Source of the DNA: a bacterium
GTDB taxonomy: Bacteria; NPL-UPA2; JAGMAN01
Length of the DNA stretch: 32,170 nt
Assembly (NCBI GenBank): GCA_023130215.1
Contig: JAGMAN010000030.1
Coordinates: 1-32,170 of the forward strand
Direction: 5' to 3'
Shown: piece by piece, positions 13,779-30,090 of the stretch
Position numbering within the stretch: position 1 is the first letter of the stretch
Layout of the letters: every line of letters starts with the position of its first letter
Notes under the pieces: generated by a model
Seen by the model: the letters and a program-made list of their open reading frames with translations, nothing else
Database searches by the model: none
Told to the model about the DNA's origin: nothing
Program-made: the position numbers and the translations under genes

Positions 13779-14963
13779 GTGACTTTGAAAATAGTGATTG
13801 TGGCTGGGGGGACGGGAGGGCATCTATTCCCTGGCTTGGTCATAGCTGAGAAGCTGAAGCAGGGGGAAGTAGGATGCGCCATTACCTTCATCGGGAGGAG
13901 GAGAGGTTTGGAAGCCGAGACTGTGCCCAGGGAAGGATTTGCATATCTTAATATATTGGGCGAGGGATGGTTGGGGAAATCTCCGGGAAGGCTTCTTTCA
14001 TCTGTGATAAAGACCCTCTTGGGATTTTTCCAATCTATCTATATCTTGTTAAGGCTTCGGCCGAATGTCGTCGTGGGAATGGGGGGATATCTATCCGGAC
14101 CATTCGTCTTGGCAGCCTCTCTCCTTGCCAGGCTGTCACGAAACCCGTTCCAGCCAAGGCGGCACTTTCACGGCGTCCTATTTCACACCTTGATCCATGA
14201 GCAAAACCTGATGCCGGGTATTACCAATCGCATCCTGAGCAGGTTTGTTAATGAAGTCAATGTAAGTTTTGCTGAGTCAATGCCGTTTTTCCCAAATGGA
14301 AAAGCAGTCTTTACCGGCAATCCTGTTCGCGGTGAAATCGTCCGGAGTCAAAAAAGGAAGAGTGAAAGTGCAAAGACGATATTAGTAATGGGAGGAAGTC
14401 GAGGGGCACATCGGATAAATGTATCTATGTTGGAGGCGGTTAATTACTTGACACGTAAGAGTGCTGCCTTTAGGGCTGTCCGCAGGACGTCCTTTAGGGC
14501 TGCAAGCGAAGAAAAGGTGGGGTCTTATAGTGTAATTCACTTAAGCGGCAGGGAAGATTATCAACTTGTGGTGGAGACCTATAAAAAGGCTGGGGTAGAA
14601 GCAGTGGTCTATCCATTCCTTCACCGGATGGAAGAGGCATACAGTCAGGCTGACCTGGTCATCTGCCGGGCTGGTGCCACTACCTTAGCTGAAGTTACTG
14701 CCTGTGGGCTGCCGGCTATTCTTATCCCTTACCCATGGGCTACCCACCATCATCAGGAGCAAAATGCCCGCTGGCTGGAAGGCAGTGGGGCAGCAGTGAT
14801 AATAGAGGACTGGGAGTTAACCGGGGAGTGCTTAGCCGGGGCCATTTTGAACTTATTGGCCGAGGAGGGGAAACTCTCCCGGATGGCTGAGAACAGCCGT
14901 CGGTTAGGTAGACCGAAAGCGGCTGAAAAAGTGGTGGAGAGAATCCTGCGCCTGGCAAGTTAG
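13779..14963 (+). CDS. murG: UDP-GlcNAc:lipid I GlcNAc transferase MurG (carries two in-frame insertions)
   Basis: GTG start. GT28 hallmarks are AGGTGGHLFPG, GMGGYLSGP, HEQN and CRAGATTLAEV..GLPAILIPYP. It is 394 aa; E. coli MurG is about 355 aa. Confidence 0.9.
   Translation: MTLKIVIVAGGTGGHLFPGLVIAEKLKQGEVGCAITFIGRRRGLEAETVPREGFAYLNILGEGWLGKSPGRLLSSVIKTLLGFFQSIYILLRLRPNVVVGMGGYLSGPFVLAASLLARLSRNPFQPRRHFHGVLFHTLIHEQNLMPGITNRILSRFVNEVNVSFAESMPFFPNGKAVFTGNPVRGEIVRSQKRKSESAKTILVMGGSRGAHRINVSMLEAVNYLTRKSAAFRAVRRTSFRAASEEKVGSYSVIHLSGREDYQLVVETYKKAGVEAVVYPFLHRMEEAYSQADLVICRAGATTLAEVTACGLPAILIPYPWATHHHQEQNARWLEGSGAAVIIEDWELTGECLAGAILNLLAEEGKLSRMAENSRRLGRPKAAEKVVERILRLAS
14130..14183 (+). other. 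In-frame 54-nt (18-aa, RLSRNPFQPRRHFHGVLF) extra segment in MurG just before the HEQN motif
   Basis: By-eye alignment with E. coli MurG (..[16 protein letters not shown]) against ..LAASLLA[RLSRNPFQPRRHFHGVLF]HTLIHEQN. The boundaries are approximate. Confidence 0.6.
14451..14510 (+). repeat. 60-nt dispersed repeat, copy A (in frame inside murG, encodes TRKSAAFRAVRRTSFRAASE)
   Basis: ACACGTAAGAGTGCTGCCTTTAGGGCTGTCCGCAGGACGTCCTTTAGGGCTGCAAGCGAA. It is nearly identical to 17267..17326 and 23330..23389. It contains the 12-mer CCTTTAGGGCTG twice and the palindrome GGACGTCC. Confidence 0.95.
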
Positions 14964-17266: not shown

Positions 17267-17326
17267 ACATGTCCGAGTGCTGCCTTTAGGGCTGTCCGCA
17301 GGACGTCCTTTAGGGCTGCAAGCGGA
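17267..17326 (+). repeat. 60-nt dispersed repeat, copy B (intergenic, between the GT4 gene and GH130 paralogue 2)
   Basis: ACATGTCCGAGTGCTGCCTTTAGGGCTGTCCGCAGGACGTCCTTTAGGGCTGCAAGCGGA. It starts 1 nt after the GT4 stop codon and ends 10 nt before ATG 17337. Confidence 0.95.
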
Positions 17327-19252: not shown

Positions 19253-20635
19253 ATGTTAGAGGGGATTAAGAACATTCATTTCATTGGTATTGGCGGAGCG
19301 GGAATGAGCGCTCTGGCCCAGGTTTTACTGGAACTGGGCTATAGGGTGAGTGGTTCAGACATAAAGATGAACCTGATTACCAAACGCCTTGAGGAGCGAG
19401 GAGCAGTGGTTCACCACGGCCACGGGGAAGAGAACTTAGCTCAAGCCGATTTAGTGATATTCTCCTCAGCCATTCCTTCTATCAATCCCGAACTGAAAGC
19501 AGCCCGCCTGCGGGGTCTTTCCGTCCTCTCCCGGGGAGAGATGTTAGCTGAGCTGATGAGGGAGAGGAATGGAATTGCTGTGGCCGGAACGCATGGGAAG
19601 ACCACCACCACTTCCATGGTCGCCTCTATCCTCTCCGAAGCTGCGCTCGATCCAACTATAGTTATTGGAGGAGAGCTAAATGACATTGGAGGAAATGCCA
19701 GACTTGGGCATAGCTCGTACTTAGTAGCTGAGGCTGATGAGAGCGATGGCTCTTTCCTGAAACTATCTCCTGCCTTGGCCGTAGTCACCAACATCGAAGC
19801 TGATCACCTGGAGTATTATCATAACCTGCCTGCTATCATTGAGGCTTTTAGAAGGTTTGTCGGAAGGGTCTCCGATGACGGATGTCTAGTCCTATCTGAC
19901 CATCCAAATGTTAGGAAGATAACAGGGAAAAACGAAAAACGAAAAACGAAAAACGTTAGGATATTGACCTATGGTATTAAGCAGGGAGTTGACCTGGTAG
20001 CTAAGGAAGTGAAGTTCCGGGGATTGGGATCAGAATATGAGGTCTTTCATCGAGGGGAGAGGTTAGGCAAGATCAAGCTCGGGGTGCCGGGCAGACACAA
20101 TATCTACAATTCGCTTGCGGCCATTGGGGTTGCATTAGAGGTAGGGGTTGGGTTTGAGAAAATAAGCTCTGCTCTGACTAATTTCCATGGGGTCCAGAGG
20201 CGCTTTGAGATAAGGGGTGAAGTTAAGGACATTGTGGTAGTGGATGACTATGCTCATCATCCCACTGAGATAAGAGCTACTCTAAAGGCTGCCCGGCAGT
20301 GGAGAGCGAAGAGAATAATCGGAATATTCCAGCCGCACCGCTATACCAGGACAAAATTCTTAAGAAAGGATTTCTCCTCGGCCTTTGAGGAAGCAGACTT
20401 CCTGGTCATAACTGAGATCTATTCGGCTGGTGAGGAACCTCTGCCCGGGGTAAGCGGGCGGGACATATACGAGGCGGTTCGAGACATTGGCCAGGAAAAC
20501 GTCGAGTTCATTCCAGACAAATCAGAGATTGCTGACCGGGTAATGAACATCCTTCAGCCAGGAGATACGGTGATTACTATGGGAGCAGGGGATATTGATA
20601 CGGTAGCCGGGGAAATAGTGCAAAGGTTAAGGTGA
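19253..20635 (+). CDS. murC: UDP-MurNAc:L-alanine ligase
   Basis: N-terminal GIGGAGMSALA, P-loop GTHGKTTTTS and GRHNIYNSLAAIG. Confidence 0.95.
   Translation: MLEGIKNIHFIGIGGAGMSALAQVLLELGYRVSGSDIKMNLITKRLEERGAVVHHGHGEENLAQADLVIFSSAIPSINPELKAARLRGLSVLSRGEMLAELMRERNGIAVAGTHGKTTTTSMVASILSEAALDPTIVIGGELNDIGGNARLGHSSYLVAEADESDGSFLKLSPALAVVTNIEADHLEYYHNLPAIIEAFRRFVGRVSDDGCLVLSDHPNVRKITGKNEKRKTKNVRILTYGIKQGVDLVAKEVKFRGLGSEYEVFHRGERLGKIKLGVPGRHNIYNSLAAIGVALEVGVGFEKISSALTNFHGVQRRFEIRGEVKDIVVVDDYAHHPTEIRATLKAARQWRAKRIIGIFQPHRYTRTKFLRKDFSSAFEEADFLVITEIYSAGEEPLPGVSGRDIYEAVRDIGQENVEFIPDKSEIADRVMNILQPGDTVITMGAGDIDTVAGEIVQRLR
19928..19955 (+). repeat. Perfect heptanucleotide tandem repeat (AAAAACG)x4 inside murC
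   Basis: aaaaacg aaaaacg aaaaacg aaaaacg is read as K-N-E-K-R-K-T-K-N. The unit length is not a multiple of 3. Confidence 0.95.
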
Positions 20636-22544: not shown

Positions 22545-23392
22545 GAGGAAATGGTCAGATAAGGACGAGGAAGAAGCTCGGGGAACGCAGAAGAGAGAAA
22601 AGGAAGAAGCTCTTTAAGGGATTGGGTAAGTTAACTCTAATCCTTTCCCTTATAGCTGGACTTGCTTTCGCCGGGAAGAAGGCAGAAGATTTCCTTCTCA
22701 CCTCCCATTTCTTCCGGATTAAGGAAGTAAATTTCAAGGGAGCTACCTTCCTTAGGCAGGAGGTCTTGGAGAAATTAGCCAATATCAAGCTGGGTAAGAA
22801 TATATTCCGGGTCAATTTAAGGGCAATCCAGGAGCGTCTGGAAAGGAATCCCCGGGTTAGAGAGGCTATTATCTCTCGAGCTTTCCCCAATGCGGTCACA
22901 GTTAATATTAGGGAGAGGGAAGCAGTTGCTCTCTTTGAAAGCGGCGGCGAAGCCTATCCGGTTGATAAGGAAGGAGTGGTGTTGCCCCGCCCTGGGCGGG
23001 CTAATCCTTTCTCCCACTCTCTTCCCCTCATTAAGGGAGTGAAGGGGTATCGGCTGAAGGTGGGAGAGAAGCTTCAGTGTCCGAAATTGACGGTGGCCCT
23101 GGAGCTATTAGCTGCTTTAGCCTCATCCGGTCTAAAAGTAAATTCCTATGGTATAAATTTAGGAGGGCCGGAGTTAATTCTGGCCAATAAGAGAACAAAG
23201 GTCTTATTGGGAGAGCTAAGTAAAGAGAAATGGATGAGAGAGTTAAAACTCATTCTGTCTGACCTAACCGAGAGGGAAGAGGAAGCAGAATATATAGATT
23301 TGAGGTTTTCCAGACCAGTGGTGAAGCTTACACGTCCGAGTGCTGCCTTTAGGGCTGTCCACAGGACGTCCTTTAGGACTGCAAGCGAATGA
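22541..23392 (+). CDS. ftsQ: Cell division protein FtsQ/DivIB (C-terminal 20 aa encoded by repeat copy C)
   Basis: Basic N-terminus, one TM helix (LGKLTLILSLIAGLAFAG) and a POTRA-like segment (FRIKEVNFKGATFL...). It sits between ddl and ftsA, with ATGA overlaps at both ends. Confidence 0.8.
   Translation: MRGNGQIRTRKKLGERRREKRKKLFKGLGKLTLILSLIAGLAFAGKKAEDFLLTSHFFRIKEVNFKGATFLRQEVLEKLANIKLGKNIFRVNLRAIQERLERNPRVREAIISRAFPNAVTVNIREREAVALFESGGEAYPVDKEGVVLPRPGRANPFSHSLPLIKGVKGYRLKVGEKLQCPKLTVALELLAALASSGLKVNSYGINLGGPELILANKRTKVLLGELSKEKWMRELKLILSDLTEREEEAEYIDLRFSRPVVKLTRPSAAFRAVHRTSFRTASE
23330..23389 (+). repeat. 60-nt dispersed repeat, copy C (in frame at the 3' end of ftsQ, encodes TRPSAAFRAVHRTSFRTASE)
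   Basis: ACACGTCCGAGTGCTGCCTTTAGGGCTGTCCACAGGACGTCCTTTAGGACTGCAAGCGAA. Its last base is the A of the ftsA ATG. Confidence 0.95.
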
Positions 23393-28335: not shown

Positions 28336-30090
28336 TTATCCTTTTTTCTCTGCCAGCTCTGACTCTAAGAATCCTTCTAATTTCCTGCTTCGCTTTGGAT
28401 GGCGAAGTTTCCCCAGGGCCTTGGCTTCAATCTGGCGCACTCTCTCCCTGGTCACTTCGAAGATTGTCCCCACCTCTTCCAGGGTGCGTGGGTAACTATC
28501 TCCAATGCCAAACCGAAGCCGCAGCACCTTCTGTTCCCTCTCCGTTAAAGTGGCTAGCACCTTCTCCATCTGCTCCTTGAGCATGAGGAAGGCAGTAGCA
28601 CTGGCCGGACAGATTGCTTCTTTATCCTCAATGAAGTCGCCGAAGTGGCTGTCTCCTTCATCTCCAACCGGGGTCTCTAAGGATATTGGCTCCTGGGCAA
28701 TCTTCAGTATTCCTCGGACCTTATCCGATGCCATCTTCATCACCTCAGCTAACTCTTCGGCCGCCGGTTCCCGTCCATATTCCTGGACAAGATAGCGGGA
28801 AGCTCTAATCAACTTATTGATGGTCTCAATCATATGAACAGGAATGCGAATGGTTCGGGCCTGGTCGGCAATGGCCCGGGTTATAGCCTGTCTAATCCAC
28901 CAGGTAGCATAGGTGGAGAACTTATATCCTCGACGATACTCAAACTTATCTACTGCTCTCATCAGGCCGATGTTTCCCTCCTGAATGAGGTCAAGGAAGG
29001 ATAAGCCCCGGCTAGTATAGCGCTTGGCGATTGACACTACCAGGCGGAGATTGGCTTCCACAAGCATCTTCTTGGCTTTATCTAACTTCCTTTCCTCTTC
29101 CTTTGCCAAACGGAGGAATCTGCGAATTTCATCCTTGGTTGTCCTTCCTTCCCTCTGCATCCTTCGAATCTTTTTCTGCCCGCTTCTAATTTCTCGGTAG
29201 AAACTGCTAATCTCCTCCCGCCCGAGGCCGCTCTGCCGGACTGCCTTCCTGGCCTCCCGGGGACCCTTAGCTACTCTTCGAGCTAATTGGCCAATCTCCT
29301 TCATTTTTAGACCAGCTTTTCTTTCCACTTTTTTAATATGGCTTTCTGCTTTCTCCATCTTCGCCAACAAATCCTTGAGCTGGGAGATAACTCTGCTCAT
29401 TTCTTCTTGGCTCAGATTAAATTCCTTCTCGGCCTGGATGATTTTCTCCTTCGCTCTCGCCCTCTTTGCTGAAAGCTTCTCCCTTTCCTTAAGGGGCAGA
29501 GTCTTTTTTTTCAACTGTCTCTTGAGGCTGGATAGTTCAGTTTCCCCCTTCTTCAACCTATCCATAAGCCTGGGAAGCTTTCTCAAGAGTCCTTTAGTAG
29601 CCTGAGGCGACCTCTCTTCACCTACCCCCTTTAATTTAGGCCCTCCTTCGCTTGCAGCACTCTTACGTGTCAATATCTTTTGCCCCAGGTTCCTCAGCTC
29701 CTTAGCGGTGAAGTCAGCATCCAGGACCAGGTTCCTTAAGTTTTCCTTAGCTCCTTCTATCTCCTTAGCCAATCGTATCTCCTCTTCCCGGGCCAATAGG
29801 GGCACCTGTCCCATCTCCCTGAGATACATTCTCACCGGGTCTTCTACTCTAACCTCTTCCGGGAGGACCTTCTCCTCTTTCACCTTAGCTGCTTTTTTCT
29901 TCTTATAGGATTCCTCGGTGGGGACAATCTCTATATCCATATCCCCAAGCATGACCAGGATGTTATCGATCTCCTCCGAGGAGATGACATCCTGAGGGAG
30001 AATGTCGTTCACCTCAGCGTAGGTGAGGTGACCTTTCTCCTTTCCCTTCTCAATGAGCTTCTGGACCTCTTCTCTTCTTTCCACTTTCAA
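28336..30090 (-). CDS. rpoD: Primary (housekeeping) RNA polymerase sigma-70 factor
   Basis: Region 1.1/1.2 and a long K/E/R-rich non-conserved region. Region 2 is [41 protein letters not shown] and region 4.2 is [24 protein letters not shown]. The track start is TTG 30090; GTG 30084 has better spacing from GGGGTGAG. Confidence 0.95.
29647..29670 (-). repeat. 24-nt internally deleted derivative of the 60-nt repeat, copy D (in frame in rpoD, encodes TRKSAASE)
   Basis: The - strand reads ttgACACGTAAGAGTGCTGCAAGCGAAg. This equals copy A, including its TTG and G flanks, minus the central 36 nt bounded by the GCTGC direct repeats. Confidence 0.85.

Follow-up and report, generated by a model that had tools for sequence, protein, structure and literature searches.

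The rpoD gene on contig JAGMAN010000030.1 (GenBank assembly GCA_023130215.1; all 32,170 nt of the contig are called the window here) contains a short stretch that matches the two arms of a longer, 60-nt repeat found elsewhere in the window, including a copy in murG (copy A). This raises the question of whether the rpoD stretch is a 60-mer that has lost its centre or the minimal form on which the 60-mer was built. Comparison with related genomes indicates that the rpoD copy is probably a complete, cargo-free mobile nano-element of 21 nt, named N1, which entered the gene after the split from the congeneric species, and not a worn-down 60-mer. We are quite confident of the identity of the rpoD element and of the direction of its history. 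The relevant features of the gene are the following.

28336 to 30090, minus strand: rpoD, a sigma-70 factor of 584 amino acids, from the list of open reading frames, with the Pfam domains r1_1, r1_2, r2, r3 and r4
29646 to 29673, minus strand: 28 nt that match the arms of copy A and their immediate flanks with 0 mismatches; also listed as inverted repeat I4
29647 to 29670, minus strand: the 24-mer of the original prediction, made up of N1 and a target-derived A (5') and AA (3'), as read from 20 empty sites
29649 to 29669, minus strand: N1 in rpoD, a 21-nt net insertion (CACGTAAGAGTGCTGCAAGCG), from DNA and protein alignments

The minus strand from 29646 to 29673 reads TTGACACGTAAGAGTGCTGCAAGCGAAG. 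Apart from 36 nt bounded by GCTGC in copy A, this 28-mer and the murG copy with its flanks showed no mismatch, and the match occurred in 0 of 100 dinucleotide-preserving shuffles; the arms alone (ACACGTAAGAGTGCTG and CAAGCG) agreed at 22 of 22 positions. The description of the stretch as copy A minus the 36 nt between the GCTGC pentamers was thus borne out, as was its reading as TRKSAASE, in the frame of copy A, in the non-conserved region of sigma-70. By Pfam, the insert forms residues 141–147 of RpoD, between region 1.2 (84–112) and region 2 (343–413). N1 itself encodes (T)RKSAAS and splits a Lys codon, which becomes Thr...Glu. What had to be corrected was the unit size of 24 nt, as the inserted DNA is only the 21 nt from 29649 to 29669, and the outer A and AA(G) belong to the target. 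The TTG preceding N1 and the start of N1 also create a perfect TTGACA hexamer within rpoD (29668–29673, minus strand); the same hexamer is formed in murG and on contig C2, and no matching -10 box lies downstream.

We compared RpoD with ten orthologues from other species, seven from other genera and three congeneric (82–85% identity). Nine of the ten came from whole genomes, two of them congeneric (85% and 83%), and the tenth, at 82% identity, represents a fourth congeneric lineage found in a search of 5.8 billion proteins. The protein alignment showed a 7-residue gap at TRKSAAS in all ten orthologues, including the fourth lineage, so the alignment of rpoD in relatives that the original prediction had proposed gave a clean gap of 21 nt or 7 amino acids. 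The residue after the gap is K in the nine whole-genome relatives, whereas the RpoD of the window has E. At the DNA level, the empty site in four relatives reads ATATTA followed by AAAGGAGG, and the window has ATATTGA[CACGTAAGAGTGCTGCAAGCG]AAGGAGG there, which lengthens the gene by 21 nt. Six further RpoD sequences with about 99% identity were recovered from NCBI, ENA and Logan assemblies; the five of full length all carry TRKSAAS, and the sixth begins at a contig end just past the element. In all, at least six assemblies of this species contain the insert. None of these six same-species sequences contains a longer insert that could be a parent at this site, and the congeners have no insert. 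Since the orthologues are empty and the same-species proteins carry TRKSAAS, the rpoD insertion is, as judged from these alignments, derived, particular to this species-level lineage and fixed in the sampled assemblies.

That the stretch arose by chance, reflects an ancestral resemblance in coding sequence or is an artefact of assembly has only negligible probability. No shuffle reproduced the 28-mer, the orthologues from other species lack the residues, the same short form recurs at other sites of the genome, and the same sequence is found in independent assemblies from different samples, in which the region of the window is 100% identical. These results indicate that a true member of the repeat family has reached the housekeeping sigma factor, as had been proposed. 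Separately, a 21-nt difference in ftsQ between two assemblies was rejected as an insertion, being a scaffold gap of 100 N.

The copies of N1 were then counted by BLAST and numpy scans in the genome of the window (G000; 1.01 Mb, 136 contigs, 46% G+C) and in two further species of the same NPL-UPA2-related genus (G001 and G002). The short form without a core is the commonest in the genus, with 34 of about 63 copies: 4 of 10 in G000, 16 of 29 left arms in G001 and 14 of 24 in G002. The copies in G000 fall into four classes.

Core of 36 nt, three copies: copies A, B and C of the window
Core of 24 nt, two copies: on contig C2, and in coaE on contig C6
Core of 12 nt, one copy: on contig C107
No core, four copies: in rpoD, in ychF, in a gene for a sigma-54 response regulator, and in the dnaA–dnaN spacer

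The intermediates that a genome-wide census might be expected to yield were therefore present, as a one-unit form on C107 and a spacer-plus-unit form on C2 and C6. The genes that carry N1 in frame encode unrelated proteins and include rpoD, murG, ychF, coaE, tmk, murC, an Asn-synthase-like gene and the gene for the sigma-54 regulator. Outside this genome, the exact 21-mer was found in two others among 185,579 species representatives, both of this genus, labelled candidate division NPL-UPA2 and, by the submitter, Nitrospirota; it had 0 matches in 241 million metagenome records and 0 in IMG/VR, and BLAST gave no convincing match in other genera of the order. N1 is thus restricted to one NPL-UPA2-related genus. 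Its copies include TAAG, TCCG, GAAAG and TCTTACG subtypes.

To obtain filled and empty versions of the same sites, the flanks of G001 and G002 copies were mapped onto G000, which gave 20 site pairs with rpoD included. N1 is present in its short form in at least 12 of these inserts, and the others combine it with another element, N3. A short copy adds 21 nt net to its site, and one intergenic site, immediately before a start codon, has gained 22 nt. The short form therefore inserts on its own at many sites. Two side observations concern single copies and variants of N1. In murC of G002, a short N1 lies exactly at the edge of an (AAAAACG)n heptad repeat, and the corresponding G000 site (window position 19930) is empty. 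In a ROK/glucokinase-like gene of G000 (contig C77, 3981–4020 and 4188–4227, minus strand), two copies of a doubled N1 variant (ACACGTCTTACGAGTGCTGGAAGCGCGAGTGCTGYAAGCG) are separated by 170 nt and read in two different frames. In addition, an 18-nt stretch, TTTACACGAAGGAGTGCT, is common to a histidine kinase gene at a contig end (C119, 15164–15179) and a sigma-54 activator gene (C120, 726–760) of G000, the latter copy being followed by a GCTCCCC-TTTC-GGGGAGC hairpin; it may represent a further N1-like subfamily.

Base counts at the 20 empty sites showed that A occupies -1, +1 and +2 at 17 of 20 sites each (P = 5e-7 each), that +3 is a purine at 17 of 20 and that +4 is G at 16 of 20, so the target of N1 is 5'-A^AARG-3'. 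Copies with G at -1 read GCACG, and the first base of the original 24-mer is therefore target-derived. No target duplication was seen in the 20 filled-versus-empty comparisons, and the ends of N1 (CACGTAAG and GCAAGCG) are not inverted repeats. Many insertions fall within a Lys codon of a linker or come straight after the ATG, as in tmk. The clearly intragenic copies are strongly biased in orientation, about 35 being sense and at most 5 antisense (P = 1.4e-6), yet the antisense strand of N1 is open in all three frames. In the sense strand, TAA closes one frame; a T-to-A change is present in all five copies that lie in this frame, compared with 3 of 30 elsewhere (P = 1.7e-4).

The longer copies were analysed in the same way. 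Copy A with its surroundings (14448–14511) reads TTGACACGTAAGAGTGCTGC[CTTTAGGGCTGTCCGCAGGACGTCCTTTAGGGCTGC]AAGCGAAG, and the three composites of the window are as follows.

14452 to 14508, plus strand: copy A in murG, a 57-nt composite, with the left part of N1 extending to 14466, the core at 14467–14502 and CAAGCG at 14503–14508
17267 to 17324, plus strand: copy B, a composite of the TCCG subtype (ACATGTCCGAG...), between two genes
23330 to 23387, plus strand: copy C, a composite of the TCCG subtype, which makes up the 3' end of ftsQ immediately ahead of ftsA, FtsQ ending in TRPSAAFRAVHRTSFRTASE and the stop

The 60-mer is N1 with 1.5 copies of an independent 24-nt element, N2 (CTGTCCRCAGGACGYCCTTTAGGG), between GTGCTG and CAAGCG. 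Its 36-nt core, as in copy A, consists of CTGCCTTTAGGG followed by CTGTCCGCAGGACGTCCTTTAGGG, a 12-nt short variant and one full 24-nt N2. N2 also occurs by itself. In G000, a lone antisense N2 adds eight amino acids (SPKGRPAD) to infA, whose product, IF-1, has 72 amino acids and no N2 in six relatives with infA; the gene is split over the ends of contigs C87 (12690–12722) and C48 (1–30), which overlap by 20 nt inside the lone N2. In G001, a sense N2 adds about LSTGRPLGL to adk (locus L102 on contig C115, 240–275, minus strand), and adk of G000 lacks it. The junctions of N2 share 3–6 nt with the target (CTG in N1, CTGTCC in infA, CTGYCC in adk), and in G002, where N1 has 14 short copies, N2 is absent altogether.

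In G001 and G002, the point between GTGCTG and CAAGCG is occupied by N3, variable arrays of CGGCAnTGCCG-type units. This cargo is 24 to 84 nt long, and all cargo lengths are multiples of 3. N3 likewise exists alone, at nine or more sites of G000:

Contig C91, 3745–3813: lone N3
Contig C87, 6607–6646: lone N3
Contig C114, 2990–3034: lone N3
Contig C113, 4949–4993: lone N3
Contig C127, 1034–1065: lone N3
Contig C69, 906–952: lone N3
Contig C81, 3161–3191: lone N3
Contig C55, 8827–8846: lone N3
Contig C135, 3593–3641: lone N3

The lone arrays are built of 11-nt palindromes with GTAA-like or GAGAAT spacers and mostly lie just 3' of genes, like REP/BIME elements.

Three sites shared between species allowed the contents of N1 to be compared. 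In murG, relatives with 60–65% protein identity have no insert, and the congeners have N1 at the same site with other cores, so that at least three lineages carry it, with 1.5 N2 (G000), N3 (G002) or one N2 (the fourth lineage); murG of the last two also has a common ACACGT duplication. In ychF, G000 and G002 have the short N1, and G001 has it with 51 nt of N3. In coaE, N1 is short in G001 and carries 24 nt of N2 in G000. The comparison of these sites shows that the cargo changes while N1 stays. Furthermore, an identical 51-nt cargo is present at three sites of G001 and an identical 36-nt cargo at three sites of the window, and whole composites therefore spread as units. The murG gene has an additional segment, ARLSRNPFQPRRHFHGVL, before HEQN (14130–14183), which is absent from the congener MurG (86% identity) and from all more distant MurG proteins; on this comparison, it is apparently another lineage-specific in-frame insert.

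The original prediction had left two alternatives, decay of the full element by slippage between its internal repeats and nested addition of the core to a minimal form. The second is favoured because the short form is the majority, inserts alone and is abundant in G002, which lacks N2, because N2 stands alone in infA and adk, and because the same arms also enclose, at an unchanged position, a second core unrelated to the first; the precise loss of 36 nt is not needed. The comparisons thus support the 21-mer as the likely primary mobile unit and the 60-mer as a nested composite.

With regard to mechanism, a sequence-specific activity that reads two short ends and the AARG target would have acted in trans to copy or move N1 in a strand-specific manner. 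In rpoD, N1 would have been pasted into the A^AAGG site, splitting the Lys codon and adding TRKSAAS. Selection in a dense 1-Mb genome would afterwards keep those copies that are in frame, stop-free and sense, in tolerant loops or termini. We regard the mechanistic part, mobilisation in trans followed by selection, as possible but tentative. Two other origins were considered and rejected: DNA uptake sequences, as the copies arose by insertion and not by point mutation and there are only tens of them; and a diversity-generating retroelement, as there is no reverse transcriptase and no adenine-specific variation pattern.

Several observations weigh against the history and mechanism proposed here. 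The first is that the rpoD copy shares TTG with copy A at a position where relatives have TTA, which together with the 28-nt identity to the arms and flanks would be expected if a 57-nt composite had entered rpoD and slippage between GCTG(C) direct repeats had removed the 36-nt core in frame. GCTG recurs at each junction within the composite, the cores of 12, 24 and 36 nt in G000 differ by GCTG-bounded units, and composites (6) outnumber short copies (4) in that genome. Such slippage may well occur in the family, and the series of core lengths is compatible with it. However, no assembly of the species has a longer rpoD insert, no fewer than a dozen other sites in congeners have gained short N1 as a clean insert of 21 nt, 14 short copies occur in G002, a genome with no N2, and the short state of ychF is common to two species, the long state being found in one only. 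Flanking bases are not co-transferred elsewhere, and the TTG in rpoD is therefore most simply an independent synonymous change. For rpoD itself, insertion of 57 nt followed by loss of 36 nt is thus improbable, and the entry of N1 as a 21-mer remains the preferred history.

The second point is that no mobilising enzyme was found; the searches covered Y1 transposase and reverse transcriptase, and other transposase families were not searched. Pfam Y1_Tnp (PF01797) is absent from G000 and G002, and RVT_1 from all three genomes, which is weak evidence given that their completeness is 69–90%. The single Y1 gene, in G001, lies on a tRNA-side island with unrelated inverted repeats. This IS200-like gene (locus L078 on contig C78, 900–1620, minus strand) adjoins a tRNA gene, is bounded by inverted repeats of GGGACAGCGACCAT and is followed by a DNA methylase-like reading frame; it is the only Y1 gene of the genus and is unlinked to N1, N2 and N3. 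The copies might instead arise with no dedicated enzyme, as short patches made from existing copies, in replication or the repair of breaks, by template switching on terminal microhomology (A...AARG for N1; CTG or CTGTCC for N2). Besides the absence of Y1 transposase from G000 and G002 and of reverse transcriptase from all three genomes, every N1 junction has bases in common with the sequence beside other copies, which likewise lie in A^AARG, the N2 junctions include the 3–6 nt identical to the target (CTG, CTGTCC, CTGYCC), and the insert at the intergenic site of 22 nt is off by one base. But 1–4 bases of homology are far too few to pick the same 21-mer about 60 times, the boundaries are base-identical, and the orientation bias and the movement of whole composites suggest recognition of defined ends. 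We therefore consider an enzyme-free origin unlikely.

The third point is the conservation of the element. At orthologous occupied sites, N1 is identical at 175 of 176 positions, against 87% identity in flanks of 150 nt (P about 8e-10). Such near-identity would not be seen in an insert that was purely selfish and decaying; it points to selection on the sequence, homogenisation by copying, or re-insertion. One explanation would be that N1 is a sense-strand cis signal, an RNA or single-stranded DNA site for a protein or small RNA, whose sequence is under selection and which mobility only distributes. This would fit the strong sense bias in spite of an antisense strand free of stops, and also the intergenic copies, which follow the direction of transcription (copy B, the dnaA–dnaN copy and the copy at locus L040). 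On the other hand, the 10–30 copies per genome mostly occupy different sites in each species and form no conserved regulon, the host genes are functionally unrelated, and homogenisation by the copying process could equally produce the conservation. No RNA structure was detectable either: the fold of N1 is not significant as DNA (-1.1 kcal/mol, z = +0.70) or RNA (-2.3 kcal/mol, z = +0.80), and Rfam gave no match at the N1 site. We judge a functional motif to be a quite unlikely explanation on the whole. The weak folding is at the same time the last point against mobilisation in trans, for N1 has no significant hairpin (stems of at most 3 bp), unlike the ends of IS200/IS605 elements or REPs. The 60-mer forms a modest hairpin, with z = -1.0 as DNA and -1.6 as RNA.

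Taken with these reservations, the nested organisation suggests that the direction of the life cycle of the element is settled, with the 21-mer coming first and the 60-mer being built on it. A more far-reaching claim, which we put forward with considerable doubt, is that N1 could be the smallest cargo-carrying, target-specific mobile element described, one that inserts at A^AARG on the sense strand, moves nested nano-elements and stays near-invariant across species with 13% flank divergence. This would imply either an unrecognised insertion machinery that reads two ends of about 8–12 nt and is perhaps guided by RNA or single-stranded DNA, or the co-option of the 21-mer as a sense-strand signal inside essential genes, rpoD included. 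With about 60 copies in 3–4 congeneric genomes, 20 site pairs, three families that interact and a defined target, the genus in any case offers a natural study system in which one can ask how sequences far below any known transposon end size spread. That rpoD, infA, murG, ychF, tmk and adk, all essential and highly conserved, tolerate inserts in a streamlined 1-Mb genome bears on the origin of new loops in conserved proteins, and also on how genes are called and aligned in metagenome-assembled genomes, whose contigs the repeats in addition break.

Among known systems, IS200/IS605 elements transpose by single-strand peel and paste, have no terminal inverted repeats, produce no target duplication and insert next to a 4–5-nt target. 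N1 likewise has neither terminal inverted repeats nor a target duplication and uses a fixed adjacent target, lying 3' of CYTT on the other strand at 16–17 of 20 sites, and it shares with them the strand bias and the tolerance of cargo between two ends. In form, the features of N1 (defined ends, a one-sided 5-nt target, no duplication, strand bias and cargo tolerance) would make single-strand transposition of this type the closest analogy. The differences are that IS200/IS605 ends need subterminal hairpins of at least 10 bp, where N1 offers stems of 3 bp or less, that the required TnpA was not found in the incomplete genomes G000 and G002, and that even the smallest non-autonomous IS200/IS605 derivatives exceed N1 about 50-fold in size. 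A miniature inverted-repeat transposable element (MITE), in contrast, has both the terminal inverted repeats and the target site duplication that N1 lacks.

REP/BIME elements and their RAYT transposases (PMC3733652) are also 20–40-nt repeats that sometimes lie inside genes, and N2 (AGGACGTCCT) and N3 resemble BIMEs as short palindromes in variable arrays. N1, however, is neither palindromic nor tagged at its ends by GTAG or CGTC, and no cognate transposase flanked by the repeats, as in the REP/RAYT system, was found, the Y1 gene of G001 being flanked by GGGACAGCGACCAT and not by N1, N2 or N3. The Rickettsia palindromic elements (RPEs) share more with N1, since both are dispersed in frame in unrelated and often essential genes, add a short peptide to a host protein that stays functional, and are lineage-restricted in small genomes. 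The RPEs of Ogata et al. are given as palindromic and about 100–150 bp long in PMC10969869 and PMC3733652. They are thus 5–7 times longer than N1, which has 21 nt and no significant fold, and N1 further differs by its A^AARG target, its sense-strand bias and the nesting of other elements at a fixed internal point.

In size, N1 falls into the class of SDR4, SDR5 and SDR6 of Nostocaceae, which Elhai et al. reportedly described in 2008 as very small mobile repeated elements of 21–27 nt. The SDRs are said to be chiefly intergenic and hairpin-forming, and, to our knowledge, they are like N1 in having no known enzyme. Common to both are the 21–27-nt size class, mobility shown by orthologous presence and absence, a short insertion motif and mutual nesting. 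According to PMC5861425, SDR5 inserts into HIP1, and no SDR-like repeats were found outside Nostocaceae. N1 differs in phylum and sequence and is chiefly intragenic, in frame, sense and not palindromic. As far as a comparison with the SDRs by description shows, N1 nevertheless works like an SDR.

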